From Candidatus Saccharimonadota bacterium (GTDB lineage: Bacteria > Patescibacteriota > Patescibacteriia > 2-12-FULL-60-25), in assembly GCA_016699205.1 (NCBI GenBank), contig CP064964.1:450001-482000 (forward strand): a stretch of DNA of 32,000 nt. Reading direction: 5' to 3'. How positions within the stretch are numbered: position 1 is the stretch's first letter; each line of letters starts with the position of its first letter. Positions 4,851 through 27,923 of the stretch are shown piece by piece. The translations under genes and the position numbers were made by a program. Under the pieces are notes generated by a model that saw only the letters and a program-made list of their open reading frames with translations, ran no database searches and was not told where the DNA came from.

Positions 4851-4893
4851 AAAAATGAAGGCCCCGGTCCGAAGTACTTCGGACCGGGGCTTC
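4851..4893 (-). terminator. Rho-independent terminator of orphan cassette 1
   Basis: A perfect palindrome, gccccggtccgaagt/acttcggaccggggc (4861-4890), is followed on the minus strand by a T-run (4855-4851). Confidence 0.8.
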
Positions 4894-4907
4894 AGATGTT
4901 CGCGGAT

Positions 4908-5960
4908 TCAGGGGGCGAGGAGCTTGGCCAGAGTCTTCTCGATGGCCTTGCGTTGGCCGGAGTACTGCTGGAGCTTGAGGCCCGCGATGATGATGTTGTC
5001 GAGATCGGGACCCCAGCACGGACCGATGAGCGCGATGCCATCGTCCTCGATGGACTCTCCCTTGGGGAGGGCAAAGAGCATTGGATCGAGCACTCGGCGC
5101 GCGCGCTCGTATTCACGCTCGAGCTGTTCGTCGATGCGATGGCGCCGCTCCTGCTCCACCGCCTTGGACCGCATCTCTTGAGCGACACGCTCCGTGCGCT
5201 CGCGCTCGATGCGATCCTCGAGCCGCTGGAGAGCGCTCTTCATCTGCGAGAGCTGTCCTTCCATCTGCTCGACGCCTGCCTTGAGACTCGAGATGCCGCT
5301 CTGAAGGGTGCGGATGGTCGGGATGACCATGTCGAGCGCGGCGAAGGTCTGCTCGTGGCCCTTGGGCGCGCGCAGCGGGAGGTCGCTCGAGGAGGCGACA
5401 TGCCGCTCGAAGCTGTAGTAGCCGACCGGAGCGAGCGCGTAGACAGAGAAGCGGGACGCGAGCGAGCTATCGAATGCCCTGATCGCATTCTTGGTGACGG
5501 CGGGCTCGTCCCGGTACGCAGCCGGATCGAGATACTCGAAGGGCATGAGGACGAAGCCGAGGTTGTCGGCGAGCGCACGCATGGTGCGGAGGTTCGCCTT
5601 GGGCGTCTCGAGGATGAGCGTGCTCAGGTGCGCCACCTGCTTGATCGAAGGCGCATCCATACCATCCGCCAGACCTGGAAGCGATTCTCCCGTCGAGAGC
5701 GCGTACTCGATCGCGATGTCCCCGAGCTCTTGCGTGTGCTGCTCGGACTCGCGCATCACTTGAGCGCGAGCCACATCATTCTTGAGACTGCGCTGCGTGA
5801 TGTAGAAGCTGAGGCTCTTGATGAGCGCATCAGATCCCTTGCTCACGAAGTCCTTGCGCGCGAGCGTCTTGCGCTCACTCGTGCGGAACCGATCCTTGGC
5901 GAGCGGCTTGCGATCCGACTCGAGCTTGACCACACTGTGCATGTTCAAACCACTACTCAT
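4908..5960 (-). CDS. Orphan cassette 1: 350-aa hypothetical protein with C-terminal coiled-coil segment, strongly GC3-rich
   Basis: ORF 4908-5984 is trimmed to the ATG at 5960, which is preceded by GAGGAAAGGAAGG. Nearly all codons end in G/C (AAG, GAG, CTC, GCG). A heptad-like region is present (LQSGISSLKAGVEQMEGQLSQMKSALQRLEDRIERERTER). I recognise no family. Confidence 0.75.
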   Translation of the reverse strand: MSSGLNMHSVVKLESDRKPLAKDRFRTSERKTLARKDFVSKGSDALIKSLSFYITQRSLKNDVARAQVMRESEQHTQELGDIAIEYALSTGESLPGLADGMDAPSIKQVAHLSTLILETPKANLRTMRALADNLGFVLMPFEYLDPAAYRDEPAVTKNAIRAFDSSLASRFSVYALAPVGYYSFERHVASSSDLPLRAPKGHEQTFAALDMVIPTIRTLQSGISSLKAGVEQMEGQLSQMKSALQRLEDRIERERTERVAQEMRSKAVEQERRHRIDEQLEREYERARRVLDPMLFALPKGESIEDDGIALIGPCWGPDLDNIIIAGLKLQQYSGQRKAIEKTLAKLLAP

Positions 5961-6005
5961 AGACGCCTTCCTTTCCTCACTCAACCATCAAAGGGACTGT
6001 CGTTC

Positions 6006-6032
6006 TTTATAAGAAAATACTGGTCTTGTCAA
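6006..6032 (-). promoter_or_regulatory. Promoter of orphan cassette 1
   Basis: The minus strand reads TTGACAAGACCAGTATTTTCTTATAAA followed by gAACGACAG. It matches the cassette 2 promoter at 21 of 27 positions. Confidence 0.6.
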
Positions 6033-6049
6033 GGGTTACCGTCTTCTAC

Positions 6050-6095
6050 AAAAGCCCTCACTCGCGACCGTTTTCACGGGTACGAGATGAGGGCT
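6050..6095 (-). terminator. Terminator of orphan cassette 2
   Basis: An imperfect long hairpin pairs agccctcactcg (6053-6064) with cgagatgagggct (6083-6095). On the minus strand it is followed by TTTG. Confidence 0.55.
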
Positions 6096-6104
6096 CTCAG
6101 CTAT

Positions 6105-6659
6105 TCAGAAGGGTTGACGGACCAGCAGGATGCGCATCATCGAGCTACGACAATCTCCGATGTCGATGTACGAACTACCTATCGACATTTGGTCTGTGCG
6201 GCTAGACAGTGCGTAGCAGATACTCATCGCCTCGACGCGACCAAAAGCCCTCAACGTGCCGACAACGTAGGCTTGATTGTCGGAAGGCAACCTGACTGCG
6301 CGGGCGAAATCGACACCCTCTAGATCGATGGCAAATCGGTAGCCTAGCGAGCCGTAATACACCGCAAGGTCGTCCAGATTTGTCCAAAGGGTTTGACGCT
6401 GGAATCGACTAGGGATCTTTGCCAGACAGAAGGTGAGTTCCCGTGGCCTTTGATGAAGGTTCACACAGGAGCGATGGAACGTTCTCCTCACTTCTACGAT
6501 GTGGAAGTTCTCGAACCTGCTTTTCAGCACCTCGGGACTTGGAAGCTTGTAGGTCACGTGAACGCGGTGATGCTCCTCGTCCATCACGCCTGACTCTGAC
6601 GACAGCGGCAAACGTGCCGCAAGTTCCGCCATTGCATGGATGAGAGTCGGGCTCGTCAT
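6105..6659 (-). CDS. Orphan cassette 2: 184-aa hypothetical protein
   Basis: ORF 6105-6674 is trimmed to the ATG at 6659, because AAGGAGG (6670-6664) sits 4 nt upstream of it. I recognise no family. GC3 is moderately elevated. Confidence 0.65.
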   Translation of the reverse strand: MTSPTLIHAMAELAARLPLSSESGVMDEEHHRVHVTYKLPSPEVLKSRFENFHIVEVRRTFHRSCVNLHQRPRELTFCLAKIPSRFQRQTLWTNLDDLAVYYGSLGYRFAIDLEGVDFARAVRLPSDNQAYVVGTLRAFGRVEAMSICYALSSRTDQMSIGSSYIDIGDCRSSMMRILLVRQPF

Positions 6660-6689
6660 GCGACCTCCTTGCACTGTGTGCCTGTCGTG

Positions 6690-6716
6690 TTTATATCAAA
6701 ATATACGTTTTGTCAA
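6690..6716 (-). promoter_or_regulatory. Promoter of orphan cassette 2
   Basis: The minus strand reads TTGACAAAACGTATATTTTGATATAAA followed by cACGACAG. Confidence 0.6.
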
Positions 6717-6733
6717 TGCTCTCCTTGAGACTG

Positions 6734-6760
6734 AAAAGAGCTCCGTACGGAGCTCTTTTT
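6734..6760. terminator. Bidirectional hairpin terminator downstream of the cyclophilin gene
   Basis: The sequence is aaaa-gagctccgtacggagctc-ttttt. Confidence 0.8.
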
Positions 6761-6774
6761 GCTGTTTGTTTTGA

Positions 6775-7512
6775 TTACTCAATCGTCACGCTCACCATCT
6801 TTACTTCCGTATTTGGACGATCGTTTCCGTTGCGCGGCGTCATGGAGATTTTGTCGGCGACGTCTTGACCTTCAACGACGCGACCGAAGACAGAATAGTC
6901 TGGCGGAAGACCGACGCTATCGACCATGATGAAGAATTGCGAGCCATTGGTGTCGCGGCCAGCGTTGGCCATAGCGACGATACCTTTGCTATACGGAGAT
7001 TTTACCGGATCGTTCTTGAACTGATAGCCAGGACCGCTCATGCCCGTACCGGTCGGGTCGCCGCCTTGGATCATGAAGCCCGGGATGACGCGGTGGAAAA
7101 TCGTGCCGTTGTAGAAACCTTTCTTTACGAGATAGACGAAGTTGGAAGCGGCATTTGGACCTTGATCAGGATCGACCTGGACAACGATGTCGCCGAGCGT
7201 GGTTTTGATACGGACTTTCTTGTTTACTTCTTGAGCGTCCATGACGCCAGGAAAAGCGAGAGCTTCAGGCATAGGTGTTGGTGTTACAGGAGTAGTTGGA
7301 GTTGGTGCATCTGATGGTGACGGGGCTTGGCCGGACTCGGCGGGTGGATCGACTTTGGTATTTGCTGGCGGCTGGCCTTGGCTGGCCGCGTACTGCATGG
7401 CGACGGTGTCGCCGTTCATTCCTTGCGTCTCAGGCTCTGCCTGTCCGCAACCGGCTCCGAGAAGCGTTGTTGCGAGTAACGCTGGGAGAATCATTTTTGA
7501 GGCGTTCTTCAT
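6775..7512 (-). CDS. Cyclophilin-type peptidyl-prolyl cis-trans isomerase, lipoprotein
   Basis: It has a lipobox (LLGAGC), a Pro-rich linker and a cyclophilin core (FHRVIPGFMIQGGDPTGTGMSGPGY, MANAGRDTNGSQFFI). Confidence 0.9.
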   Translation of the reverse strand: MKNASKMILPALLATTLLGAGCGQAEPETQGMNGDTVAMQYAASQGQPPANTKVDPPAESGQAPSPSDAPTPTTPVTPTPMPEALAFPGVMDAQEVNKKVRIKTTLGDIVVQVDPDQGPNAASNFVYLVKKGFYNGTIFHRVIPGFMIQGGDPTGTGMSGPGYQFKNDPVKSPYSKGIVAMANAGRDTNGSQFFIMVDSVGLPPDYSVFGRVVEGQDVADKISMTPRNGNDRPNTEVKMVSVTIE

Positions 7513-7527
7513 AGTTTGACGAGTCTA

Positions 7528-8502
7528 TCACAACTCCCACGGCAATCGGAGCGTACTGTCAAAGGAGACGCGTATCGACTCGACGAGAAGTTTTGGCGAG
7601 TCCCAGCCGATCGGCGGATGCTCGAGATCAAATCGCGCGAGGTCGAGATGGGAACGGAGGTCCTCCCCTTTTTCATTTCGGACACGCATCGCCGAGGGCT
7701 TGGATTCATGCGGCGTGTAATCGAGTTCTGCGAGAACCGCTTTTCCAAATCCTCCCGCCACGAGTTCACGGGCCGCAGCTCGCGCATACCATGCACCAAG
7801 ATTTGAAGGATGCGCGAGATGATGGCCGTTGCCGGATGGCGTTGGCGGGAGTTTGCGTCCGTATGGAGAAAGCCTGCGGCCGGATGAACCAATGCGGCTA
7901 GCGAGACCGCCATTAGCTTTTGCGTGGGCGACGACAACGCGTAAATCATTTGCATCGACTTCCGGCAGAACGCGCAGGAGACGCGATTTAATTTCTTCTG
8001 GCGATGCCACATCGGCATGACCGAGACGAATAACGACTTCTTTCCCGCGAATGCCGCCGGCAAAGACGGCGTAGTCGGAGCCGAGCCAGTACCAGTCAGC
8101 GTCCATGAGGCGGCGGACTTCTATCGCCTGAAGAATGTGCCGAGCGCGCTCGACCTCGCGAGGAAGTCTTGAATCTGTCTCAGATGTTGCGTAGCCAAAG
8201 ACGGTAAGCGGATCGCGGTCGCCAAAGAGCGGCGGATCAATCATCGGTTCGATGGCGATGAATGGCTCGGCAGAGAGGCCGGCGTCGATTTGGCCGAGCG
8301 TGCGGCGAACAACGGCGGCGACGTCGAAATCGGCTTGGGATTTGGCTTCACCAGCCACAAAAAGCACGCCATGACCGCCGGAAACACGGATATTTAAAAG
8401 AGACGCAGGATCGCGCCGGAGATATTCATCGGCGATGGCAGCGGTAACCAGGTCGCAGGCCGTGTCGGGTGCGCCCGGGCCTTCCAAATGCGCCCAAGCC
8501 AT
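7528..8502 (-). CDS. Divergent S-adenosylmethionine synthetase (MetK)-like protein, probably non-canonical
   Basis: The 324-aa protein aligns by eye to MetK. [26 protein letters not shown] corresponds to [36 protein letters not shown] corresponds to [27 protein letters not shown] corresponds to SAAYAARYVAKNIVAAG. The GAGDQG and GGGAFSGKD signatures are degenerate. Confidence 0.6.
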   Translation of the reverse strand: [324 protein letters not shown]

Positions 8503-8550
8503 AGATTGGGCAGACCTTATCGGGCTAGTGGGATTGGGGCAAGTCGGCTT

Positions 8551-8630
8551 GTCATTGCGAGGAATCGAAGCAATCTTGGTCCGGACCGCACGCTCAGGAT
8601 TGCTTCGTCGTCGCTACTCCTCGCAATGAC
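8551..8630. repeat. Nested 80-nt palindromic (REP/MITE-like) element between the uvrD stop and the MetK-like start
   Basis: The outer 13-bp arms are GTCATTGCGAGGA (8551-8563) and TCCTCGCAATGAC (8618-8630). The inner 10-bp arms are CGAAGCAATC (8566-8575) and GATTGCTTCG (8598-8607). Confidence 0.7.
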
Positions 8631-8632
8631 AG

Positions 8633-10792
8633 CTAAAGGTCCTCGATCTCTCGCAGGTAGGAACCGGGCTTAAGTGGCTTCTTTGGCTTTTCGTCTTTTT
8701 TCCAAACGGTTGTGGGTGCGATTTGGATCGCCGGCTCTTCATAACCATCACTCCCCTCGCTATCGTCCCAAGACCATGCACCGGCTTTTTTGGATTGTTG
8801 CCACTTTGTCGTTCCGGAACCAGCCTCGCGCAGTTCTACTCTTTCGAATAGATGCGGATCGACTTCTTCGATGAATGTCGATGGCTGATTCAAAACCAAT
8901 GACTCTTGGCCGAGGGTGAGCGGGTAACTTAAGAACAGTTGGCGGCGGGCGCGTGTAACAGCAACGTAAAACAAGCGTCTCTCCTCTTCCATTCCGTCTT
9001 CTTCTGCGAGCGCGCGGCGATTTGGGAAGCTTTGGTCGGCTAAATGGATAATAAAAACTGTATCCCATTCCAAGCCTTTGGCTTGGTGGATGGTCGAGAG
9101 GATCATTTTCTCCTCACGCTCCACACCTCTCGCTTCACGCGTCGCTGATTGGGCGACAACATCATCGTAGAGCGAGATGTCGGCGAGGAAGGCGGCGAGA
9201 TCATCATAGCCTTCTGCAAAGAGGGCGAGCTGTTCCAAATCTTCCAAGCGTTCACGCCAGTTTGGATATTCGCGCTCCAAATAATCCTGATATGCGGACG
9301 ATGTGACGGCGCGGATAAGCTGAGCCGGGAATCTTCCCTTCTCCAAAAAGTTTTTGAGAATCAGCATCATGTCATTCCAACCAGTTTGTCCGCGGGCAGG
9401 GATACGCAGACCAGCGGAACCATCGACGATCATGTCGACGCTTTCTATCACGCGCATCTGCGAAGCGATGTCTCCCGCGGTTGTTGCGCCGATACCTGTT
9501 TGCAATCCAAGCGTGCGCAGCCAAGCGACTTCATCTTTTGGATTTTCATACACGCGTAAAAAAGACACGACATCTTTTATGTGTGCGCGTTCAAAAAACT
9601 TTTGGCCGCCGCGATACTCGTACGGAATATCGCGCTTCATCAACTCAAATTCCAGCGTTTGGGAATGAGCACTCGAACGGAACAACACCGCCATGTTGGC
9701 AAGAGCGACTCCCCCATCGCGCAAAGCCAAGACCTGTTCTGCGATATATCGCGCTTCCTGCGAGGCTGATGAACAGGCGATCAAACGAGGCTTATCCCCT
9801 TTTTCCCTCAGTCCAATTAGCTCTTTTTTGAATTGATGGCGGTTGTGCGAGAGCGATTCATTGGCGAGATCGAGGATTTGAGGCGTTGAGCGGTAGTTTG
9901 TAAGCAATTTAAAAATCTTTGCATCCGCAAATTGTTCAGGAAAAGAAAGAATGTTTTTTACATCTGCGCCTCGGAACGCATAGATCGACTGCGCGTCGTC
10001 GCCAACGGCGATAATATTACGATGGATTTTGGAAAATCCAGCGACGATACGCGCCTGCACGGCGTTCGTATCTTGATACTCGTCGACGAGCACGTAGCGG
10101 AAGCGCTCGGAAATTCTTTTGCCGTCCGGGCTATCGAGCAGCATGGCGAGATTGGTGAGCAAGTCATCAAAGTCCATGGCGTTCGCCTGCTTTTTTCTCT
10201 GATGATATTGCTTGGCGATTTCCTCGATGTCCGTGATGAAGGCTTGGAAGTTGGGATATTTTATTTCAAGCACGTCATCGATGGAGTGCTGGGTGTTGCG
10301 GGCGTAGGACAAAATATCGCCTACGACAGATGCGGTCGGGAAACGCCGGGCCTTTGGATCGATGGCCAAGTCTTTCATGACGGCTTTGATTAGATTGCGA
10401 CTGTCTTCTTGGTCGAGAATGGAAAAATTGGATTGATAGCCGAGGTCTTCTGCGAATGAGCGCAATAAGCGTGCGCCGATTGAATGGAAGGTACCGCCCC
10501 AAATACCGCGAGCCGAGGGTCCGAGCACGCTTTCTACGCGGCCAGACATCTCTTTTGCCGCCTTATTGGTAAATGTGAGTAGCAAAATCGAGGACGGATC
10601 AACGCCGTGCTCGATGAGATAGGCTACGCGATAGGTTAACGTGCGGGTTTTGCCGGAACCGGCTCCAGCTAACACAAGACAAGGGCCATCACCCTCCAGA
10701 ACGACAGCCAATTGCTCCTGATTGAGCGCTTGGACGTAGTCGATTTTTTTGACCGAGCCACCCGGATCGGAAGAAAGCGTAAAGGTGGACAT
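8633..10792 (-). CDS. uvrD: UvrD/PcrA-type SF1 ATP-dependent DNA helicase
   Basis: Motifs present are AGAGSGKTRTLTYR (Walker A), YVLVDEYQDTN, VGDDAQSIYAFRGA, LLTNYRST and TIHQAKGLEWDTVF. I chose the start at MSTFTL (10792) because a promoter-like element lies directly upstream. Confidence 0.9.
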   Translation of the reverse strand: MSTFTLSSDPGGSVKKIDYVQALNQEQLAVVLEGDGPCLVLAGAGSGKTRTLTYRVAYLIEHGVDPSSILLLTFTNKAAKEMSGRVESVLGPSARGIWGGTFHSIGARLLRSFAEDLGYQSNFSILDQEDSRNLIKAVMKDLAIDPKARRFPTASVVGDILSYARNTQHSIDDVLEIKYPNFQAFITDIEEIAKQYHQRKKQANAMDFDDLLTNLAMLLDSPDGKRISERFRYVLVDEYQDTNAVQARIVAGFSKIHRNIIAVGDDAQSIYAFRGADVKNILSFPEQFADAKIFKLLTNYRSTPQILDLANESLSHNRHQFKKELIGLREKGDKPRLIACSSASQEARYIAEQVLALRDGGVALANMAVLFRSSAHSQTLEFELMKRDIPYEYRGGQKFFERAHIKDVVSFLRVYENPKDEVAWLRTLGLQTGIGATTAGDIASQMRVIESVDMIVDGSAGLRIPARGQTGWNDMMLILKNFLEKGRFPAQLIRAVTSSAYQDYLEREYPNWRERLEDLEQLALFAEGYDDLAAFLADISLYDDVVAQSATREARGVEREEKMILSTIHQAKGLEWDTVFIIHLADQSFPNRRALAEEDGMEEERRLFYVAVTRARRQLFLSYPLTLGQESLVLNQPSTFIEEVDPHLFERVELREAGSGTTKWQQSKKAGAWSWDDSEGSDGYEEPAIQIAPTTVWKKDEKPKKPLKPGSYLREIEDL

Positions 10793-10798
10793 GGGCAG

Positions 10799-10827
10799 AT
10801 GATAACGAAGAAGCCCGACCATGTGAA
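10799..10827 (-). promoter_or_regulatory. Candidate leaderless promoter of uvrD embedded in the cassette 3 terminator hairpin
   Basis: The minus strand reads TTCACA (10827-10822), 17 nt, TATCAT (10804-10799), 6 nt, then ATG (10792). Confidence 0.45.
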
Positions 10828-10841
10828 CATGGCCGGGCTTC
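10810..10841 (-). terminator. Hairpin downstream of orphan cassette 3
   Basis: The arms are gaagcccgacc / ggccgggcttc, with an inner atg..cat pairing. The trailing T-tract (ttcgtt) is weak. Confidence 0.45.
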
Positions 10842-10862
10842 AGAGATCGAGTCTTTGGTTGT

Positions 10863-11402
10863 TTAGCGGATTTGCTTCCAGAGTAGGTCCTCCTGGTTGG
10901 GTTTGCCTGCCTTTTCTCGCGACTGACGCTCTTTGGAGCGCTTTTGCACCTTGCCGCGGATCCAGTCGCGCCGCACTTCCGAGAGCATCTCCAGCATCGT
11001 CTCGCCCTTGAGATAGGTGCTGAGACATTCGTCCTGATTGAGGGCGAGGACTTCCAGCTGGTTGATGCGGTTGATGCGGTTCACGATGAGCTCGGTTCTG
11101 TGGCCCAGACCAAGACGGTTCCAGATGCGCAGCGGATCGGTTTCGAAACCGACCAGGTACATCTCGTCACGGCCGTGGCGCCAGAGAAAGTAGTTGAACT
11201 CCTCCTCAAGTACCAGCCGCGCCAAGCGATCGCGCAAGCTCATGCGCTGACGCTCATCCGGGCTGAGGGTCGGAATCACCAGGTCTTCGTCGTCGTCCGA
11301 CTCGACGGGTTCGGGTTCTTGTACCGGGTACTCGCCTGATTCGTCGCGTATGAGCGATATCACCAGCTCGACATCAGAACGAGCTGCAAAGCTCCCGTCC
11401 AT
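10863..11402 (-). CDS. Orphan cassette 3: 179-aa hypothetical protein (acidic N-terminus, basic C-terminus)
   Basis: AAGGAG lies 7 nt upstream of the ATG at 11402. GC3 is elevated. An internal 9-nt tandem repeat (gttgatgcg x2, 11061-11078) encodes NRINRIN. I recognise no family. Confidence 0.65.
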   Translation of the reverse strand: MDGSFAARSDVELVISLIRDESGEYPVQEPEPVESDDDEDLVIPTLSPDERQRMSLRDRLARLVLEEEFNYFLWRHGRDEMYLVGFETDPLRIWNRLGLGHRTELIVNRINRINQLEVLALNQDECLSTYLKGETMLEMLSEVRRDWIRGKVQKRSKERQSREKAGKPNQEDLLWKQIR

Positions 11403-11459
11403 GATGAACTCCTTGAACGTTGTTAGTATCTCCCTGCCTTTATGAGCAGAGAACGAATC

Positions 11460-11488
11460 AATATACTACAAAATTGCGGTTTTGTCAA
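11460..11488 (-). promoter_or_regulatory. Promoter of orphan cassette 3
   Basis: The minus strand reads TTGACAAAACCGCAATTTTGTAGTATATT followed by GATT-CGTTC. The -35 box lies only about 20 nt after the mltG stop. Confidence 0.6.
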
Positions 11489-15344: not shown

Positions 15345-15373
15345 TTGACATTTTGGCTAATTTATGGTATTTT
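15345..15373 (+). promoter_or_regulatory. Promoter of orphan cassette 4 (FHA protein)
   Basis: The sequence is TTGACA (15345-15350), 17 nt, TATTTT (15368-15373) with an upstream TG, then ATCA-CGTTC. This is the same geometry as cassettes 3 and 6. Confidence 0.6.
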
Positions 15374-15461
15374 ATCACGTTCCCCGGAAGGCCGTGGGAA
15401 TGCGAGCGGCCGCGTTGCCGCAACGATTTTGGATCTTCAAAACACGAGAAGGAGAACAGAC

Positions 15462-17447
15462 ATGGCCAACGAGAAGAAGGGTTTCAGCTTCGACGACATC
15501 GAGGATGCGGTGCTTCCGAGCACGGTATCCAGCATCGCCGCGGCCTCCGCGACGGACACGCTCAGCGAGTCCTCCGAGGACGAGGCGGGCGACGAGAGCG
15601 ACGACAACAACAACGGCGACGACGGCGACGAGGATCTCCGGGAGACCGGGGTCCACGAGAACGAGGTCGACGCGCTGCTCATCGACACCGGCACGCCGGG
15701 CGGCGAGATCGAGGACCTGAACGAGACCGAGAAGTTCACGCTTCAGGTCAAGGCCGCCTTCGACAAGACGGTCGGCCTCGGCGAGGAGCTCCTGCGCGAC
15801 AGCACGCTCTCACTGCGCGAGCGTGCCGCCGCCATCGAGGTCGTCATCAGCGATCTCGACATGCAGCTCGACAAGGACGCCATCAAGGCGGACAACGAGC
15901 TCGTGATCGCGGGCCGTGCCACCAAGGCATCTCTCCAGCGCACGCTCGAGTACACGCTCCAGCGCTTGTGCCTCGAGGCCGCCAACGCGACCCCGAGCAC
16001 GCTGCCGGAACGGATCCAAGGCGTGAGCGACACCGATCTCGAGCGCATGGCGCTCGGTCTCGGCGAGCTCGAGCTCAAGGCCGTGACGGAGGAGGGCAAG
16101 AAAGAGGCCCTTCGACTGCACGCGATCGTCGCGGCAGACAAGGCGCGTCGCACGGCCACTGGTCCCACCATCGCGGTGAGCCTCACGCCGCCGCCTCCTC
16201 CGCCTCCGGTGGAAGAGCGGCAGCCGCTCATCGTCCCGCCCGCGTCCGCGGCTCCCGTGATCGAGACTGTCTGGCAGTCGGGTCCGGAATCCGTTCGTCC
16301 GGCCGATGAGGCCGTGACGCACGACGCTCCGCTCAAGACGGTGGCACCCGCCGCTGTCTCGCCCGCCTCGCCGGCCCCTTCCGAGGAGCCGTCCGTGCAC
16401 GTCTCCATCAGTATGGAGAAGGAAATGAACCAGCACCCGCAGCAGCAGCCGCCGGCAGAGACCGAGGTCCCGCCGGTCTTGGAGCCTCCGGCTCCGTCCA
16501 ACAGCGAGCCCGTGGAGGTCCGCACGCGCATGCGTGTGGGTCGAGCACTGAACAACGACTGGGTGATCGAACAGCCGCACATCAGCGCCCACCACGCCGT
16601 CCTCACGATCAATGAGGGCAGCCTCCAGATCGAGGATCTGGGCAGCACCCATGGCACGTTCGTGCTCGACGAGCTCGCCAACTGGGTGCGCATCACTCAG
16701 GGCAGCCCCGCGGTCGTCAAGATCGGGCAGCGCTTCCGCTTCGCCAACATCGAGGCGGTCTCGTCGCATGATAAGAGCAAGCGGACCAACGTCCACTTCG
16801 TGAAGCCGGACGGCAAGATCTCGCACTCGATCGGCTTCTTCTGGGCCGGCGAGCAGCAGAGCGAGTTGCACCGTCTCGAGCAGGCGCGGCTGAACGCCGA
16901 GGATGCCGCGAGGCAGCCCAAGCAGACACCGCTCAAGACGCCCGACGAGCTCGACAAGAAGAGCCCCACGCAGATGCAGCAGGCCATCGCCAAGAGTAAC
17001 TCGACCGGCAACGGTCTGAGCAGGGCTCTCGGCGTCGGTGTGCTGATCCTCGGAGCCCTCGCGCTCCTCGCCGTGCTCTTCATGTGGGGCAGCGGCGGCT
17101 TCAACCGCCACCACACGGTCGCGACCACCGAGACGGAAACGTCCACGGAGTCGGAGACCGAGACGGTGAGCGAGACCGAGACGACGGCCGAGACGGAAAC
17201 GTCCACGCCGACCGACACGGTCACCACCGAGACCGGCTACAGCCGCCGACCCGGTCGCGACGTCGCGAGCTGCGAGCACGTAACGAGCTTCCTGCTCGCG
17301 CGAGCCGATGGTGAGGCCTACTGGGACTGCTCGGGTATCACTCCCGACCAGTACCGAGATCTGTACAGGATCGAGGATCCCATGGGCGCGCGCCACGTCA
17401 TCGCCAACACCTGCGCGTGTCAGCGATGTGAACCGACCGTGCACTGA
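15462..17447 (+). CDS. Orphan cassette 4: 661-aa FHA-domain membrane protein with Thr/Glu-rich repeat and Cys-rich C-terminal domain
   Basis: ORF 15345-17447 is trimmed to the ATG at 15462, which is preceded by GAAGGAGAA. Codon usage is extremely G/C-ending. The FHA signature at about nt 16515-16754 reads RVGRALNNDWVI..PHISAHHAVL...IEDLGSTHGTFV. The TM helix (GVGVLILGALALLAVLFMWG) spans about 17025-17090. The TETETSTESETE repeat spans about 17115-17237. Confidence 0.8.
   Translation: MANEKKGFSFDDIEDAVLPSTVSSIAAASATDTLSESSEDEAGDESDDNNNGDDGDEDLRETGVHENEVDALLIDTGTPGGEIEDLNETEKFTLQVKAAFDKTVGLGEELLRDSTLSLRERAAAIEVVISDLDMQLDKDAIKADNELVIAGRATKASLQRTLEYTLQRLCLEAANATPSTLPERIQGVSDTDLERMALGLGELELKAVTEEGKKEALRLHAIVAADKARRTATGPTIAVSLTPPPPPPPVEERQPLIVPPASAAPVIETVWQSGPESVRPADEAVTHDAPLKTVAPAAVSPASPAPSEEPSVHVSISMEKEMNQHPQQQPPAETEVPPVLEPPAPSNSEPVEVRTRMRVGRALNNDWVIEQPHISAHHAVLTINEGSLQIEDLGSTHGTFVLDELANWVRITQGSPAVVKIGQRFRFANIEAVSSHDKSKRTNVHFVKPDGKISHSIGFFWAGEQQSELHRLEQARLNAEDAARQPKQTPLKTPDELDKKSPTQMQQAIAKSNSTGNGLSRALGVGVLILGALALLAVLFMWGSGGFNRHHTVATTETETSTESETETVSETETTAETETSTPTDTVTTETGYSRRPGRDVASCEHVTSFLLARADGEAYWDCSGITPDQYRDLYRIEDPMGARHVIANTCACQRCEPTVH
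17128..17207 (+). repeat. In-frame direct repeat inside the FHA protein gene
   Basis: The 20-nt sequence ccgagacggaaacgtccacg occurs at 17128-17147 and again at 17188-17207, a 60-nt period. It lies inside degenerate GAGACS hexamer repeats encoding (T/S)E. Confidence 0.8.
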
Positions 17448-17476
17448 CGCACCTTTGCCCTAACGGGCACCTACGT

Positions 17477-17519
17477 AAAAGCGCCTCTACCAATCTGGTA
17501 TGAGGCGCTTTTCTTTTTC
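17477..17519. terminator. Bidirectional terminator between the FHA gene and the FecR-domain gene
   Basis: The hairpin is aaaagcgcctc (17477-17487) ... gaggcgctttt (17502-17512), followed by tctttttct. Confidence 0.8.
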
Positions 17520-22551: not shown

Positions 22552-22823
22552 TCTTGTATAGCGATGGCCAGGATACGCATCGTCATGATGTGGCCGATCA
22601 CTAAAGCAGCCATTAAGGCGAGCAGATGCCAGAGCAGCCAATAGGAGGGACGGAGGAAGTCGGCGAGGATGGCGAGCGGCTGCAAGATCAAGATCCAAAA
22701 GAATACGCCGATGCGATAGACGCGCTTGGAACCGGGTGGCCACGCTTCCGCGAGCAGCGGGTTGATCGGTTTATCAGTAGGCGTCTCGGAAGACGGGGGC
22801 GAGGTAACGGTCGAGCGGGGCAT
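22533..22823 (-). CDS. Possible small two-TM membrane protein
   Basis: It fills an otherwise empty gap of about 220 nt. It has two clear hydrophobic helices (VFFWILILQPLAILADFL, WLLWHLLALMAALVIGHIM). The start overlaps the upstream gene by about 50 nt, so this call is uncertain. Confidence 0.4.
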   Translation of the reverse strand: MPRSTVTSPPSSETPTDKPINPLLAEAWPPGSKRVYRIGVFFWILILQPLAILADFLRPSYWLLWHLLALMAALVIGHIMTMRILAIAIQEWKNRV

Positions 22824-24306
22824 AGTCATCAGTAAGAATGGAAGCATCTTTGTGCTGCGCGAGGAACTCCTCTACCACCATTGGATCGAGACGTTTGGCG
22901 GAAGCTTCAATCGCTTGATCATCGGCTTCAAGGCGATCAAAGGAGGGAGGGCGAGCACGCTGCCAGCGATCGGAATCGATCGGTTCATCGGAAGCAATGA
23001 GAACGATGGTGTTGCGACCTGGTTCAAGCGTATCGGCGAGCGGTGCGATTTCTACATGCTTCCAGACTTGGCGTAGCGTGAGCGTCATCGCTGCAAGAAA
23101 ATTGCCGTAGCGGCTATCGTCGATCAAGTTGAGGGCGTAGATGCCGTCGGATTTCATGCGTGACTTGAGCAGCTGATGGAATTCGAGCGTCGTGAGGTGA
23201 ACAGGGACTCCGAAATCATTGAAAGCATCGCCGAAGACGAGGTCGTAGGGTTCATCGACGTTACGCATGAGGTGGCGACGAGCATCGCCCGAGGCCATAA
23301 CGATGGTGGTCGTTGTCGACAGTTCCATGAAGCGATGATTAGCCTCAATGACAGCCGGATCGATCTCGGAAACGGTGGAGGTGGCGTTGGGGTAATAGGC
23401 TTCAAGATAGCGAGGCAGAACAAAGCCGCCGCCGCCGATGAAGTAGGCATGAAAAGAATCGCGTGTTGCGTAGCGCGACGCGATCAAACGTGCGTAGACC
23501 TGCTCATACCCGTAGCCGAGATCGGATGGATCACGCGGCGAGACATAGGAATGCACCAAGTGGTCGAGGCGGAGCGTGTAGCGAGGCGTGTTTTCCAATC
23601 CATCGACCTTGATGCGGATACAAAAATAGTTGGACTCGATCTTGCAGATGCCGGGCAAGAGCACATTACCTGCACTGACCACGAGCAGAAATCCGATGAT
23701 GCGATAATTTAATACGTTCTCCCCTATTGCGATGTATACGCCTATCAAAAGGAGTGCGATCGCGACGGCTGACATCAGATATTGCGCGCCGAGGGCGGCG
23801 ATCAACACATAACCGCCAAGTCCGACGCCGAGCAAGCTGCCGACGGCACCAGCAGCCGAGAGCTTACCGATAATAGAACCCGTGTGACCGAGATCATCGA
23901 CGGCGAGCTTGGCGAGCTGGGGGCTGACCATCGAGAGAAAGAAAGCGACCGGACCAAAAACCACAAGCGCGAGCATGATAGAACGAAAGGCGAGGTCCAT
24001 CGGGTAGGCGGAAAGGCGGGTTGAGAAAAATGAGAGAGCAAAGTTGGCTGCGAGAGCAGCCGTACCGCTCAAGAGGAATGTCTGCGCCAAAGCACGGCGG
24101 CCTGATTTGCGATCCGCGAGATAGCCACCGGCTGCTTGACCGAATGTTAAGCCGATGAGCGTTGCTCCGATGACGGAAGTCCAGGTGAAAACGGATGTAC
24201 CAAGATATGGCGCGAGGGCGCGGCCGAATAAAACCTGGATCAGCATCAAACAAAAACTCGCGAGTCCATTCAAAATCCAAACCGGAGGCAGACGGAGCGA
24301 TTTCAT
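22774..24306 (-). CDS. Fused membrane-module / spermidine synthase-like (class I methyltransferase fold) protein
   Basis: ORF 22774-24450 is trimmed to MKSLRLPP at 24306, which forms an ATGA overlap with the upstream stop. About 7 TM helices are followed by FIGGGGFVLPRYL, SEIDPAVIE and YDLVFGDAFND. Confidence 0.75.
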   Translation of the reverse strand: MKSLRLPPVWILNGLASFCLMLIQVLFGRALAPYLGTSVFTWTSVIGATLIGLTFGQAAGGYLADRKSGRRALAQTFLLSGTAALAANFALSFFSTRLSAYPMDLAFRSIMLALVVFGPVAFFLSMVSPQLAKLAVDDLGHTGSIIGKLSAAGAVGSLLGVGLGGYVLIAALGAQYLMSAVAIALLLIGVYIAIGENVLNYRIIGFLLVVSAGNVLLPGICKIESNYFCIRIKVDGLENTPRYTLRLDHLVHSYVSPRDPSDLGYGYEQVYARLIASRYATRDSFHAYFIGGGGFVLPRYLEAYYPNATSTVSEIDPAVIEANHRFMELSTTTTIVMASGDARRHLMRNVDEPYDLVFGDAFNDFGVPVHLTTLEFHQLLKSRMKSDGIYALNLIDDSRYGNFLAAMTLTLRQVWKHVEIAPLADTLEPGRNTIVLIASDEPIDSDRWQRARPPSFDRLEADDQAIEASAKRLDPMVVEEFLAQHKDASILTDDYAPLDRYLAPVFRDAY

Positions 24307-24920
24307 ACGCGGCGAATACGCATCAAGTACACACAACCGACGATCATGAGAAGGATCGCGAGCAAGAACCAGACTTGGCGTGTCGAGAAATACGCCTGGA
24401 ACACAAAGCCAGTCAGATACGTTCCGAGAATACTTCCAGCCGAGTTCCAAGCGCCGAGCATACCGTAGACGCGGCCGGTGCGATCAAGGGAGTCGAGGCC
24501 GACGCGGACGGCGGCAGGAGTGATCGAGGCGGAAATGGCGGCCGGAGGAAAGAAGACGGAGACGCAAAAGATGAGCGTGAGTAACGGAAGCGGCAGCGTT
24601 GAAGCGGAAAGAATCGGTCCGATGGTGAAAGCGATGAGGTAGGCCAGGGCTGCAAATAGACCGCTGAATGCAAGCAGCCATCCAAGGAGACGAGCGTGGT
24701 GGAAACGATCGGCCAGATATCCGCCGAGACGGGATCCGGCAACAATACCGAGAAGCACGGCAGCGATCACAGCTGTCCAAGTCTGTAGCGAAGAACCGAG
24801 GAAGGGCGAGACAAGACGAGCGGCCATGATCTCAAAGGCCATCATCGTAAAACCTCCCAGAAATACAAACGCCCCGAGAATCATCGGGGAGTTTGGTGAA
24901 AATCGGGAGGACGTGGCCAT
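24303..24920 (-). CDS. Membrane-only paralog of the N-terminal module of the downstream spermidine synthase-like protein
   Basis: In this 205-aa protein, FEIMAARLVSPFLGSSLQTWTAVIAAVLLGIVAGSRLGGYLADR aligns with LFGRALAPYLGTSVFTWTSVIGATLIGLTFGQAAGGYLADR of the next gene. Confidence 0.7.
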   Translation of the reverse strand: MATSSRFSPNSPMILGAFVFLGGFTMMAFEIMAARLVSPFLGSSLQTWTAVIAAVLLGIVAGSRLGGYLADRFHHARLLGWLLAFSGLFAALAYLIAFTIGPILSASTLPLPLLTLIFCVSVFFPPAAISASITPAAVRVGLDSLDRTGRVYGMLGAWNSAGSILGTYLTGFVFQAYFSTRQVWFLLAILLMIVGCVYLMRIRRV

Positions 24921-24934: not shown

Positions 24935-25090
24935 TTATTTGGTCTCCTTGTGCGGAGAACGTCCTTTGCAGGTTTTACAAAATTTGGCGATCTCAAGGCG
25001 GGCCTTGATCGTCTTTTTGTTCTTGCTCGAGTGGTAGTTGACCTTACGGCACTGGGTGCACTCGAGTTTAATGAGGTTGTCTTGAGACAT
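24935..25090 (-). CDS. rpmG: 50S ribosomal protein L33
   Basis: This 51-aa ORF is missing from the track because it is under 60 aa. My manual translation is MSQDNLIKLECTQCRKVNYHSSKNKKTIKARLEIAKFCKTCKGRSPHKETK, with a CxxC...CxxC zinc ribbon. Confidence 0.85.
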   Translation of the reverse strand: MSQDNLIKLECTQCRKVNYHSSKNKKTIKARLEIAKFCKTCKGRSPHKETK

Positions 25091-25105
25091 AGGTAGGTAG
25101 TGGTT

Positions 25106-25160
25106 AGTTTTCAGTGGTCAGGGGTCAGGGCTGAAAACTCACAACTGACAACTGAAAACT
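25106..25160. repeat. Short tandem heptamers and inverted 9-mers in the tRNA-Thr/rpmG spacer
   Basis: GGTCAGG occurs twice in tandem (25116-25129) and ACAACTG occurs twice in tandem (25141-25154). AGTTTTCAG (25106-25114) is the inverted copy of CTGAAAACT (25131-25139 and 25152-25160). Confidence 0.7.
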
Positions 25161-25270: not shown

Positions 25271-25299
25271 AATATGCCATACGCCTTCAAAAAAGGCAA
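25271..25299 (-). promoter_or_regulatory. Candidate tRNA-Thr/rpmG operon promoter abutting the cassette 5 terminator
   Basis: The minus strand reads TTGCCT (25299-25294), 17 nt, CATATT (25276-25271), then cagg-CCCGTTCGTTC. Confidence 0.35.
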
Positions 25300-25323
25300 G
25301 CCCCGCACAGAGAGGTGCGGGGC
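25289..25323 (-). terminator. Terminator of orphan cassette 5
   Basis: The hairpin is gccccgcac (25300-25308) / gtgcggggc (25315-25323). On the minus strand it is followed by ttgccTTTTTT. Confidence 0.75.
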
Positions 25324-25359
25324 TGTTCTCAGGAAGGGAGGTTTGGCCGTGGTTATTGG

Positions 25360-25917
25360 CTAACCAGTAACCACATAGAGCGTTCTTTTTGCGCAGAGCC
25401 CGGCCGGCATGAATCCGTTCTCGTAGAGCATGAGCACAGACTCGATCTCGCGATAGTCGGCTTCACGATCCGTATTTTTGAAACACGTACCGTAGAAAAG
25501 AAGGAGGCGCACGCACTCTGAAAGCGTGCTCTTCAGCGTAATCAACGCGGGAGCAAACACAAGCGTGTCCCACAGAGCCTGCGTATGAGCTCCTTGATAC
25601 AAGCCCATGATCGAGCATCGAAGCAGCGCACTGTCGCCCGACAAGGACGTATCGAGACGCCTCGAGAAATGCTCGTGAAGAAGGCAGTCCATGCCGACCC
25701 ACTGTTTTTGCGCGAGCCCAACAGCGTCCGCATGACGCACGAACTCGATTCGGGACGGGTTCAGCCATGCAAAGGCTGTCATCGTGTTTTCGGCGAGCAC
25801 TTCTGCATCGCCTGGTGCGAGAAGATGCGGCACCCAATCACTCCATCGCTCCAATGGAAGAAGTGCCGGTACCATCGCGCCCGCGCGCGCTTGTCTCGAT
25901 TGCGAGAACGTCTCCAT
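25360..25917 (-). CDS. Orphan cassette 5: 185-aa hypothetical protein
   Basis: The ORF is intact and has its own terminator. GC3 is only moderately elevated. I recognise no family and the SD is weak. Confidence 0.55.
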   Translation of the reverse strand: METFSQSRQARAGAMVPALLPLERWSDWVPHLLAPGDAEVLAENTMTAFAWLNPSRIEFVRHADAVGLAQKQWVGMDCLLHEHFSRRLDTSLSGDSALLRCSIMGLYQGAHTQALWDTLVFAPALITLKSTLSECVRLLLFYGTCFKNTDREADYREIESVLMLYENGFMPAGLCAKRTLYVVTG

Positions 25918-25942
25918 GTTTACCCCACATCACGTGCCGATG

Positions 25943-25971
25943 TTGATACAAAAAGAGCGACATCTATCGAA
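25943..25971 (-). promoter_or_regulatory. Weak candidate promoter of cassette 5
   Basis: The minus strand reads TTCGAT, 17 nt, TATCAA. It does not carry the TTGACAAAAC box of the other cassettes. Confidence 0.3.
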
Positions 25972-26060
25972 TCGTATTTTCTTCATATTGTCCAGACTCT
26001 CCAAATCAGAAAATGTGGGTAACTGGACGGAATGAACCGATCCAGCGATGATATCTCCAT

Positions 26061-26654: not shown

Positions 26655-26661
26655 TCCAATA

Positions 26662-26690
26662 TTGACTTTTTACCTAAAATCCGGTATACT
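26662..26690 (+). promoter_or_regulatory. Near-consensus promoter, nearly leaderless, for the coiled-coil gene
   Basis: The sequence is TTGACT (26662-26667), 17 nt, TATACT (26685-26690), 8 nt (aaatcgtt), then ATG at 26699. Confidence 0.6.
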
Positions 26691-26698
26691 AAATCGTT

Positions 26699-27217
26699 AT
26701 GAATAACCCTGAATCTGCACACAGTTACGACGACGTTTCCAGTGCGGAGCGCGTCTCGCTTGATGCAAAACTCAAGAAAAATAATGTGGTCGCTTTTGAT
26801 GCCAAGGAAATCCAGCGACGGATCGAGCGCATGCAAGCCCTGGAGACCAAGATCGTTCCGGATCAAACCAATATTCTGGTTGGACTCAGACGTGAATTAG
26901 AAACCCTGAACAAAGAGTATCTTAGCCTGAAGGAAGTCGTGGACATGGGTATGGCTAAGTTTTCCGACCTGCAGCGACTTGAAGCTGTACAAGGAGAACT
27001 GCAGACCTTGCAATCTGAAGTCGTAGAAGCCGAGGGGATCCGCGCGGAATTGCGTCGGGAATTGGCTTTATTGAATCCTGATGAATACGGCGATCTCTAT
27101 CAGCTTGAACGGGCGCAAGCCGAGGCCTCCAAAAACGCACTCAATAACGCCGTCGCTGCAATGGATGAATCGATGCTCGATGAGATCCACCAGCAAATCA
27201 AAAAGAAGAAAAACTAG
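26699..27217 (+). CDS. Coiled-coil hypothetical protein (172 aa)
   Basis: The sequence is heptad-rich (LRRELETLNKEYLSLKEVV, LQTLQSEVVEAEGIRAELRRELALL). Codon usage is host-like, AT-richer. Confidence 0.6.
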   Translation: MNNPESAHSYDDVSSAERVSLDAKLKKNNVVAFDAKEIQRRIERMQALETKIVPDQTNILVGLRRELETLNKEYLSLKEVVDMGMAKFSDLQRLEAVQGELQTLQSEVVEAEGIRAELRRELALLNPDEYGDLYQLERAQAEASKNALNNAVAAMDESMLDEIHQQIKKKKN

Positions 27218-27227
27218 TGAAACGTGA

Positions 27228-27259
27228 GAACGCCCCGATCCGTGTGGATCGGGGCGTTT
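27228..27259. terminator. Shared bidirectional terminator (coiled-coil gene / cassette 6)
   Basis: The sequence is gaacgccccgatc-cgtgtg-gatcggggcgttt. Confidence 0.75.
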
Positions 27260-27264
27260 CTGTA

Positions 27265-27861
27265 TCAGGAGAATGGACCGAGAACTCGGCCCCACCACTT
27301 GCGGGGCGAGAGGCCTCGCACCGCGAGTAGCGTCTGCGGGCGGAAGCTCGGAGGCAGAAGCGTGGCAAACGGGATGCGCTTGTCCGCCTGCTCGTCCATG
27401 ATCGCGATGAGCGGGAGGACTCGGCTTCCATAGCCGCGGCGGCGGAGGAGGATGGCCACGCTCTCGAGGATCTCGCGCGCGAGCGCGAGGAGGATGAGGT
27501 CGTTGATCGGCCACTTGCGAGCTTCGAGGACGTCGAGCTCGGTGACGAGGCTCAGGGCCTCGAGCTCGGCGAGATGGGCGACTTCCTTCATGTCCTCCGG
27601 CGTCTGCGCCATGAGCCATGCTTGCGTGCGCTTCTCGAACTCCTTGTCGTAGTTGCTTTCGACGAAGGCTTCGAGCTCTGCATTGGTCACGGGCAGGAAG
27701 CGGTTGGTGACAAGACCCATCGCCGCAAAGCGGTTGTAGATCTTGTCGCTCTTACCGAGCTCCTCGTACTGGGCCTTGAGCCAGGACGGGATGGTCCAAG
27801 GACCAATGAGCTCGTCGAGGCGGGGCAGTGCGTAGGAAGGGGGTAGGATTTCCGTCATCAT
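27265..27861 (-). CDS. Orphan cassette 6: 198-aa hypothetical protein, strongly GC3-rich
   Basis: GGAGA lies 6 nt upstream of ATGATG. Codons are almost all G/C-ending (CTC, GAG, AAG, GCC). I recognise no family. Confidence 0.7.
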   Translation of the reverse strand: MMTEILPPSYALPRLDELIGPWTIPSWLKAQYEELGKSDKIYNRFAAMGLVTNRFLPVTNAELEAFVESNYDKEFEKRTQAWLMAQTPEDMKEVAHLAELEALSLVTELDVLEARKWPINDLILLALAREILESVAILLRRRGYGSRVLPLIAIMDEQADKRIPFATLLPPSFRPQTLLAVRGLSPRKWWGRVLGPFS

Positions 27862-27894
27862 CGCCTATCTCCGGGTTGAAGGAGCGAACGGCTT

Positions 27895-27923
27895 ATCTAA
27901 CCAAAAAAACGCGGTTTTGTCAA
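27895..27923 (-). promoter_or_regulatory. Promoter of orphan cassette 6
   Basis: The minus strand reads TTGACAAAACCGCGTTTTTTTGGTTAGAT followed by AAGC-CGTTC. The first 13 nt are identical to the cassette 3 promoter. Confidence 0.6.

Follow-up and report, generated by a model that had tools for sequence, protein, structure and literature searches.

Bacteria of the candidate phyla radiation (CPR, Patescibacteria) have tiny genomes, are mostly uncultured and carry about half of their genes without an assigned function. Here we describe a set of single-gene expression units wedged between housekeeping genes of such a genome, in a 32,000-nt stretch of contig CP064964.1 (assembly GCA_016699205.1, positions 450,001 to 482,000; 54% GC) that is referred to below as the window. 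The units were singled out by an earlier sequence-only reading as six orphan open reading frames (ORFs), all of which were found where it had placed them and are numbered ORF1 to ORF6 by position (Table 1). As that reading had it, FHA in ORF4 is the only domain that Pfam and NCBIfam recognise among the six (E=4.7e-14), the other five being orphans. We regard as somewhat likelier right than wrong the reading that these are native, Uhrbacteria-restricted single-gene expression cassettes, which sit in fixed intergenic slots and whose coding regions have become hypervariable through recombination. Diversifying or frequency-dependent selection would keep the loci diverse, homologous recombination through the conserved flanks would exchange alleles and allele segments, and the products would serve conflicts or interactions particular to the strain, the other party being phage or the partner or host cell. 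The persistent excess of G and C at third codon positions (GC3) would then be a by-product of that recombination, by GC-biased gene conversion (gBGC) or a similar fixation bias, and not a donor signature.

The coding regions differ between relatives (whose loci carry L-numbers here, and protein matches P-numbers) far more than the genes on either side, cassette alleles being about 30-80% identical at the amino acid level where flanking proteins are 92-100% identical. Against L126, which belongs to the same species, the flanking proteins are 98-100% identical, with synonymous divergence (dS) of 0.01-0.10 (one gene reaching 0.20) and nonsynonymous divergence (dN) of no more than 0.02, and ORF4 is 79% identical (dS 0.26, dN 0.145). 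Against L128, again of the same species, flanks that are 96-99% identical (dS 0.07-0.5) accompany ORF3 at 42-50% identity (dS 1.6, dN 0.45, with dS 0.2-0.5 in its flanks), ORF6 at ~40-41%, ORF4 at 70-77%, ORF5 at 96%, and a small coiled-coil gene at 59% (dS 1.7). Against L043 the flanks are 92-97% identical (dS 0.4-1.2, dN/dS 0.02-0.08), ORF6 is 62% identical (dS 0.75, dN/dS 0.38), ORF5 ~30% and the coiled-coil gene 32-37%. Taken gene by gene, ORF3 alleles are 38-99% identical (mltG and uvrD 78-100%), those of ORF6 41-62% where the flanks are 96-99%, and those of the coiled-coil gene 37-69% (DUF4230 flanks 73-99%), while ORF2 is 83-87.5% identical in strains where most neighbouring proteins reach 96-100% (for PPIase in L128, 90-95%), with dS of 0.23-0.30 and dN/dS of 0.32-0.35. 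The window allele of ORF5 is 29-33% identical to alleles in L043, L040 and L026 that are led by a Shine-Dalgarno sequence (SD) and lie 0.15-0.20 GC3 above background. The coiled-coil gene, which was absent from the earlier list, is thus a seventh hypervariable unit, GC3-rich in no genome compared.

The relationships among alleles also disagree with those among their flanks. For ORF3, the window is closer to L131 (64%) than to L128 (50%), although the flanks are 90-93% and 97-98% identical, respectively; for the coiled-coil gene, L128 is closer to L040 (69%) than to the window (59%), the DUF4230 flanks being 73% and 99% identical; and for ORF6 the window shares 62% with L043 and 41% with L128. 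Divergence far above that of the flanks, mosaic structure and incongruence between allele and flank, the features of recombination-driven hypervariable loci, were all found here. Gene-wide dN/dS values of 0.2-0.7 (0.24-0.26 between strains for ORF1) show that the ORFs encode real, constrained proteins, and the confident AF2 model of ORF6 agrees with this (all-alpha, pLDDT 84, pTM 0.81). That model found no fold match in PDB or BFVD; the model of ORF1, which has a coiled coil at about residues 203-290, was too poor for a structure search, and PDB sequence searches with ORF1, ORF2, ORF3 and the ORF5 family gave empty or chance-level results.

Recombination is seen most directly within ORF4. Over the 130 nt that precede it, L126 agrees with the window at 100% and L128 almost fully; over the 80 nt that follow it, the window, L126 and L128 are 100% identical; and both flanks are recognisably conserved in L001 and L026. 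Between them, ORF4 is an intragenic recombination mosaic, because the affinities of successive segments alternate among the three strains (Table 1) and the informative sites, split 176:8 in the second segment, are split 4:163 in the third (Fisher p=5e-84). The encoded protein is, as predicted from its sequence, a single-pass membrane protein, whose acidic N-terminus lies in the cytoplasm and is followed by a conserved helical domain, a Pro-rich linker that varies, the FHA domain (residues 358-427), a transmembrane helix (about residues 522-543), a Thr/Glu repeat and a conserved Cys-rich extracellular C-terminal domain. The FHA domain (PF00498) scores 53 bits against a Pfam gathering cutoff of 20.7 and is conserved in the homologues P0010-P0018 and in L001 and L026. 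We take ORF4 to be a putative membrane-anchored phospho-threonine-binding scaffold. Note also that an 18/24-nt periodic repeat at 17122-17218 encodes the Thr-Glu stalk (TETETSTESETE...) just past the transmembrane helix, its length varying among homologues.

Four of the slots are shared across the clade. ORF3 (between mltG and uvrD), ORF4 (gpmI and FecR), ORF5 (tRNA-Thr/L33 and DUF4230) and ORF6 (coiled-coil gene and helicase) occur in the same places in every related member of the Uhrbacteria recovered; the ORF4 slot holds the same family in L001, L026, L126, L128, L130 and L131, and a GC3-rich, SD-led ORF without a Pfam match in L038 and L005, and the seven homologues of ORF6 are all syntenic. 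These families appear confined to the clade, as clusters retrieved from 5.8 billion proteins (two for ORF1, seven for ORF6, nine for ORF4) and the four convincing representatives of the ORF5 family among 1.84 billion proteins all come from it. One further match of ORF5, to the 1083-aa repeat protein P0023, was set aside as compositional and repeat-driven on reading the sequence.

Elevated GC3 accompanies the cassettes across these genomes. In the window, the 24 other genes have a mean GC3 of 0.575 (sd 0.029, range 0.517-0.648), and ORF1, ORF4 and ORF6 exceed it strongly and ORF3 moderately, as had been read by eye; ORF2 and ORF5, which had been called intermediate, lie at the upper edge of the host range (Table 1). 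Alleles of each genome compared stand 0.05-0.3 above their own background, whether this is as low as 0.41 or as high as 0.63. Thus ORF4 reaches 0.92 in L001 (background 0.63) and 0.68 in L026 (0.41), with 0.75 for the ORF in its slot in L038 (0.44); ORF6 reaches 0.83 in L043 (0.60) and 0.64 in L040 (0.50); ORF5 alleles reach 0.77 in L043 (0.60), 0.65 in L040 (0.50) and 0.61 in L026 (0.41); and genes in the ORF3 slot reach 0.64 and 0.69 in L038 (0.44) and 0.70 in L003 (0.52). Since the offset persists while the background shifts by 0.2, it points to a standing force and not to an import that has yet to ameliorate.

The nature of the excess is informative as well. Codons ending in G or C predominate in ORF1, ORF4 and ORF6 taken together (AAG 0.98, GAG 0.85, CTC 0.73, ATC 0.98), and the skew is spread evenly over the length of each ORF (GC3 of 0.75-0.97 in ORF4) and stops at the start and stop codons, much as the sequence-only reading had described. 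It does not stem from amino acid composition, since GC1 and GC2 of the six ORFs are near background. The long antisense ORFs are spurious, as suspected, because simulations that shuffle synonymous codons reproduce their lengths, so that codon usage alone predicts them. Among G/C-ending codons the host ranking is kept, with CTC (0.73) above CTG (0.17) and GGC (0.57) above GGG (0.05). A preference for CTC over CTG and a low use of GGG are the reverse of what is typical of high-GC phyla. Codon optimisation of the ribosomal type was examined through rplJ and rplL of the same species, recovered by exact-protein look-up, and is ruled out: their GC3 is 0.61 and 0.71, both avoid GCG and GTG and favour GCC/GCT, GTC, GGT and GAA, whereas the cassettes enrich GCG (0.42), GTG (0.41), GAG, CCG and ACG. 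Lassalle et al. (2015; PMC4450053) report that recombining bacterial genes have raised GC3, mainly through non-optimal GC-ending codons. Because the codon pattern of the cassettes matches that report, and because recombination is demonstrated in these loci, the GC3 excess probably reflects a recombination-linked fixation bias, namely gBGC.

In the cassettes, conserved expression signals surround the hypervariable coding regions. A perfect TTGACA -35 box lies 57-117 nt upstream of five of the six ORFs (all but ORF5), as had been noticed, and five of the only seven copies of this hexamer in the window, counting both strands, are found there (Poisson p=3.5e-8). The consensus scan accepted a complete promoter, with -35 and -10 boxes 17 nt apart, for ORF3 and ORF4 only; read from the sequence, ORF1 and ORF2 have TATAAA after a 15-nt spacer and ORF6 has TGn-TTAGAT at 17 nt, the TGn extension of the -10 box being present in ORF2, ORF4 and ORF6. 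The same five ORFs have a strong SD behind leaders of 35-90 nt, against none of the 24 other genes (Fisher p=4e-5), which bears out another of the claims made from sequence, and SD sequences also lead other ORF5 alleles, a different cassette in L046 and a strain-specific three-gene insertion in L126. At the 3' end, strong hairpins follow all six ORFs (-24 to -32 kcal/mol, z -3.6 to -7.8, with no shuffled sequence folding as well), although those of ORF4 and ORF6 are common to the convergent neighbour and not private, as had been supposed.

Some of these signals are alike from cassette to cassette. The leaders of ORF3, ORF4 and ORF6 begin with CGTTC and fold into a 5' hairpin, and in their promoter and leader start ORF3 and ORF6 repeat each other directly, with 70% identity over 44 nt (TTGACAAAACCGC...CGTTC; 11445-11488 and 27880-27923). 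A second promoter variant, TTGACAARAY...ATTTTG.WATAAA..CGACAG, is shared by ORF2, ORF1 and the L046 cassette. The 5' untranslated region of ORF4 (15374-15461) contains two hairpins that are conserved, with compensatory changes, in L001 and L026; a U-run comes after the second, which might act as an attenuator. No known RNA family was found by Rfam in the cassette leaders. With promoters and leaders so alike, the cassettes may plausibly belong to one regulatory class.

Core genes look different at their starts. GGAG, GAGG and AGGA are absent within 20 nt of the start in all ~24 core genes of the window, and an SD is also absent from rplJ, rplL, rpmG, frr and glyS of the same species or close relatives. 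Many first genes are probably leaderless, since a -10-like box lies only 6-8 nt before the ATG of the C39, uvrD, gpmI, FecR, MFS, coiled-coil and helicase genes; examples of core gene starts are 4804(-), 10792(-), 15310(-), 19546(-), 24920(-), 26699(+) and 27953(+) in the window, and 11940 and 12617 in L044. Internal operon genes start 2-8 nt past the upstream TAA. SD-led cassettes set in an SD-less core suggest two translation-initiation regimes within one small genome.

ORF2 and ORF1 share the one slot that is polymorphic for presence, between the PPIase and C39 peptidase genes. It is empty (30-45 nt) in L001, L026, L003 and L047 and unoccupied in L038 too, the conserved C39 promoter following directly on the PPIase stop codon, and ORF2+ORF1 occupy it in the window, in L044/L045 and in L128. 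In L046, where PPIase is 98% and C39 97% identical, it holds a single, different 191-aa orphan with GC3 of 0.86-0.87, laid out as in the window: terminator of the upstream gene, TTGACAAAA promoter, SD, ORF and GAAGCCCCG hairpin. The terminator hairpin of PPIase (6732-6761) is present only where the slot is occupied. Insertion is exactly between the PPIase stop and the C39 -35 box (window 4805-4860, 6762-6774), and AATC(G), present as a single copy where the slot is empty, recurs at each of the two junctions where it is filled (L046:1381-1400, 2120-2140; L047:6730-6745), which may be a 4-5-bp target duplication, weak as evidence of that length is. A metagenome scan with PPIase returned mostly distant cyclophilins, L046-L048 alone being informative. 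A homologue of ORF1 (37% identity, GC3 0.80) lies after tgt on another contig (L039), preceded by a ~180-aa orphan to which ORF2 has no similarity by BLASTP. Compared by hhalign, the L046 protein matches the ORF5 family over its full length (E=0.0077, 137 columns, hhalign probability 5%), a suggestive result that we do not claim as homology; paralogy between cassettes was not found for the ORF5 family against the ORF6 family or for ORF6 against the L046 protein (controls E≈0.6 over 8-12 columns).

Strain-specific content of other kinds was seen at two of the slots. In L126, a 4-kb insertion (L126:2187-5997, between the equivalents of window 11403 and 11507) separates ORF3 from mltG and encodes two orphans, of 289 and 255 aa, and a DEAD/Helicase_C protein that is SD-led and whose Cas3-like matches are weak (PADLOC E~1e-6); the insertion may be a defence-type module in the variable ORF3 slot. 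After DUF4230, the same strain carries an AT-rich (GC3 0.37) PI3/PI4-kinase-like gene (L126:21092-21932) in place of the coiled-coil gene, in the slot of window 26699-27861, its locus ending before the position of ORF6. A similar ORF containing DRHxxN is present in L026 (111-641), and the L126 gene represents, within this hotspot, the classical kind of accessory gene with low GC.

How else might such units have arisen? The sequence-only reading had proposed repeated single-gene acquisitions from a high-GC donor, such as the cell on which an episymbiont lives, followed by rewiring to native promoters, and this fits GC3 outliers at z=6-10 with AT-rich flanks, an SD usage foreign to the core genome and the absence of ORF2+ORF1 from most relatives. 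For at least four of the six (ORF3-6) the proposal fails, in view of synteny across species whose flanks are synonymously saturated, a GC3 excess in all orthologues whatever the genome GC, homologues from this clade only, and the host's own codon ranking, GC1 and GC2. These four are the same families at the same loci with the same composition throughout the lineage, absence from relatives at the same locus being confined to ORF2+ORF1, a presence/absence insertion; recent import from such a donor is therefore very improbable as a general account. Mobile cassettes of phage or mobile-element origin, inserted site-specifically and then inherited vertically, with SD and GC3 reflecting the mobile pool, are an account that we consider quite unlikely. 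Phage morons, too, are built as promoter, ORF and terminator, the PPIase|C39 slot alternates among no insert, ORF2+ORF1 and another cassette at a precise insertion point, the ORF1 homologue after tgt lies in another context, the three-gene insertion of L126 is SD-led, and promoters and terminators of different cassettes are alike. Against this, the window contains no integrase, recombinase or transposase gene and no long direct repeats or repeats of att length, as had been observed, but only the AATC(G) at one slot, and four of the six slots hold the same family throughout the clade. Searches likewise gave no relatives of ORF1 or ORF6 in IMG/VR, no match of five ORFs and the L046 protein in 50,697 phage (INPHARED) or 72,556 plasmid (PLSDB) records, and none in PHROGs, PADLOC (six ORFs) or BFVD, so that a phage, plasmid or defence origin was rejected.

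For the GC3 excess in particular, the main rival is selection at the mRNA level, on stability or expression. Very highly expressed or long-lived messengers would have had GC3-rich, A-poor coding sequences selected together with their 5' stem-loops, SD and 3' hairpins, and we hold this to be unlikely. The perfect -35 boxes, TGn extensions, strong SD, terminators and conserved 5'-proximal hairpins are in keeping with it, as are the confinement of the skew to the ORF, the preference of rplL and cassettes alike for C-ending NNY codons, AAG, ATC and CTC, and the mildly raised GC3 of rplL; in addition, dS of ORF4 against L001 (0.79) is below that of the flanks (1.0-1.9), as expected if synonymous sites are constrained. 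However, cassette GC3 of 0.82-0.88 is far above that of rplL or rplJ, the enriched GCG, GTG, GAG, CCG and ACG are not the choices of these ribosomal protein genes, dN/dS of 0.4-0.6 is atypical of highly expressed genes, and glycolytic genes, RRF and TIM show no GC3 elevation. Slow-growing organisms with small genomes and few rRNA and tRNA genes are, moreover, reportedly seldom under strong translational selection. A bolder scheme, possible although we do not lean towards it, would make the promoter/leader and terminator the portable homology arms of a recombinase-free exchange platform, by which competent Uhrbacteria would swap alleles, segments and unrelated orphans; the cassettes would form a translational class of their own, dependent on SD, and their extreme GC3 would be a footprint of repeated heteroduplex repair. 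On that view the slots would be, for CPR bacteria, a functional analogue of integrons that works through homologous recombination and serves proteins of strain-specific conflict or of interaction with the host.

Several points weigh against the reading that we prefer, recombination-driven diversification of native cassettes. Between more distant relatives ORF6 and ORF4 do not exceed their flanks in dS, and fast evolution in situ combined with ancient alleles is not fully separable from exchange. We infer the gBGC step, and the effect to be accounted for, +0.25-0.30 GC3, is judged very large for a bacterial genome; the excess is gene-bounded, is as high in the invariant C-terminal domain of ORF4 as elsewhere, is lacking in ORF2 and in the hypervariable coiled-coil gene, and is present in ORF1, which varies little among its three carrier strains. 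As to function, coding regions that vary so much under conserved expression signals hint at proteins used in conflict or interaction specific to the strain. The second reading proposed from sequence, a lineage-specific accessory or effector regulon, is supported in its lineage-specific, accessory half, its effector half staying conjectural. A functional clue is available for one of the six proteins only. An arms race of the surface-antigen type is not obviously applicable, because ORF1, ORF2, ORF3, ORF5 and ORF6 lack an obvious N-terminal signal peptide or transmembrane helix, by reading the sequence and not by a predictor, and because ORF4 varies most on its cytoplasmic side.

The cassettes are a variant of known hypervariable-locus biology, in which the magnitude of the GC3 excess and the two kinds of translation-initiation signal stand out. 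Phage morons resemble them as single ORFs of deviant composition with their own promoter and terminator, placed between conserved genes and present or absent among relatives; the window cassettes differ in lying outside a prophage, lacking phage homologues, being mostly fixed at one slot clade-wide, being GC3-rich rather than simply atypical, and having hypervariable, mosaic alleles. With integron cassettes and CALIN arrays they share alternative single-gene contents at one site and a unit that ends in a hairpin-forming element; unlike these, they have no integrase or attC consensus, carry their own promoters and are dispersed, exchange appearing to proceed via flanking homology, and the slot junction GTTGATC does not, by eye, fit the integron GTTRRRY. 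In conserved flanks, deeply diverged alleles, mosaics and incongruence they are like the hypervariable islets and mosaic contingency or antigen genes that recombination and balancing selection maintain (surface-protein genes of Neisseria or Streptococcus, flexible islands of marine bacteria), from which the window genes differ in encoding mostly small orphans, in their GC3 excess, in being SD-led in an SD-less genome and in that the extracellular domain of ORF4 is its most conserved part. A target of a diversity-generating retroelement was considered and rejected, as the window has no TR/VR-like repeat or reverse transcriptase and variation spans whole ORFs in blocks. The recombining genes of Lassalle et al. 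(2015) are similar in raising GC3 via non-optimal GC-ending codons; here the effect is very large, gene-bounded and not found in all hypervariable units.

For ORF4, the actinobacterial FHA proteins FhaA/FhaB (FipA, Rv0019c) and GarA/OdhI offer a comparison, its best PDB relatives being OdhI, GarA and Rv1747. An N-terminal domain followed by a disordered Pro-rich linker and FHA recalls FhaA, and membrane anchoring recalls FhaB; the FhaB/FipA model (NF049868), however, gives 39.6 bits against an NCBIfam cutoff of 125, over the FHA part only, and ORF4 departs from the actinobacterial scaffolds in having its transmembrane helix after FHA, a Thr/Glu stalk and Cys-rich extracellular domain in addition, and no neighbouring kinase or phosphatase.

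Strain-level novelty is concentrated here in a few single-gene slots, and the signature of a perfect -35 box, leader with SD, GC3 excess and own terminator can be searched genome-wide for candidate interaction or conflict genes. The slots are possibly also a natural test bed for gBGC in bacteria. A signal of atypical composition that would be taken for horizontal gene transfer is in this case a long-standing trait of native recombining genes, which calls for caution in composition-based island detection.

Table 1. Hypervariable units of the window and segments of the ORF4 mosaic (window coordinates; z relative to the 24 other genes; CDS, coding sequence).
Feature	Span	Strand	Promoter and leader	SD	CDS	GC3 (z)	Terminator or segment affinity
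ORF1 cassette	4861..6032	-	TTGACA 6027-6032; ~65-nt leader	GGAAAGGAAGG	4908-5960, 350 aa	0.823 (8.5)	hairpin 4861-4890
ORF2 cassette	6050..6761	-	TTGACA 6711-6716	AAGGAGG	6105-6659, 184 aa	0.638 (2.1)	hairpin 6050-6098
ORF3 cassette	10810..11488	-	TTGACA-17-TATATT 11460-11488; CGTTC leader	AAGGAG	10863-11402, 179 aa	0.744 (5.8)	terminator 10810-10841, overlapping the leaderless uvrD promoter
ORF4 cassette	15345..17512	+	TTGACA-17-(TG)TATTTT 15345-15373; 88-nt leader	GAAGGAGA	15462-17447, 661 aa	0.879 (10.4)	bidirectional terminator 17477-17512
ORF4 segment	15440-15615						L126 = L128, window apart
ORF4 segment	15616-16255						window ≈ L126, L128 apart
ORF4 segment	16500-17030						window ≈ L128, L126 apart; FHA domain inside
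ORF4 segment	17031-17447						all nearly identical
ORF5 cassette	25299..25994	-	weaker conserved promoter, TGGACA 25989-25994	none in window allele	25360-25917, 185 aa	0.634 (2.0)	terminator 25299-25324
Coiled-coil gene	26662..27217	+	TTGACT-17-TATACT 26662-26690; leaderless		26699-27217, 172 aa	0.55	
ORF6 cassette	27227..27923	-	TTGACA 27918-27923, TGn-TTAGAT; CGTTC leader	GGAGA	27265-27861, 198 aa	0.829 (8.7)	hairpin 27227-27260, shared with convergent coiled-coil gene

The window comes from a Candidatus Uhrbacteria genome, as shown by gpmI, which matches metagenome-assembled genomes of Candidatus Uhrbacteria at 70-90% amino acid identity with the same gene order, by a protein 100% identical to ORF4 (P0010) on an NCBI Candidatus Uhrbacteria contig, and by an exact match of XseA on JGI contig Ga0558118_06706, which is 97.8% identical in nucleotides over window 72-11373. 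The neighbours of the cassettes had been named correctly (PPIase, C39 peptidase, MltG/YceG, UvrD, the phosphoglycerate mutase iPGM encoded by gpmI, the FecR-domain protein, DUF4230 and a RecD-like helicase), and three tRNAs were confirmed, these being all that Rfam returned for the window. A 32-nt imperfect inverted repeat (72% complementary) at 19691-19756 abuts or overlaps the 5' end of tRNA-Pro (19748-19823). The gene for ribosomal protein L33, rpmG (51 aa, MSQDNLIKLECTQC...), lies at ~24960-25115 (-) between tRNA-Thr and the MFS gene, below the size limit of the ORF list. The spermine-synthase-like/MFS fusion gene at 22774-24450, a core gene, has a dS of 0.20 against L126, its neighbours having 0.05-0.08, and may have undergone a recombination import of its own. 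Finally, the 'MetK-like' 324-aa protein at 7528-8502 (-) matches SAM synthetase over the N-terminal domain and a portion of the central one only, and is 86-100% identical among relatives.

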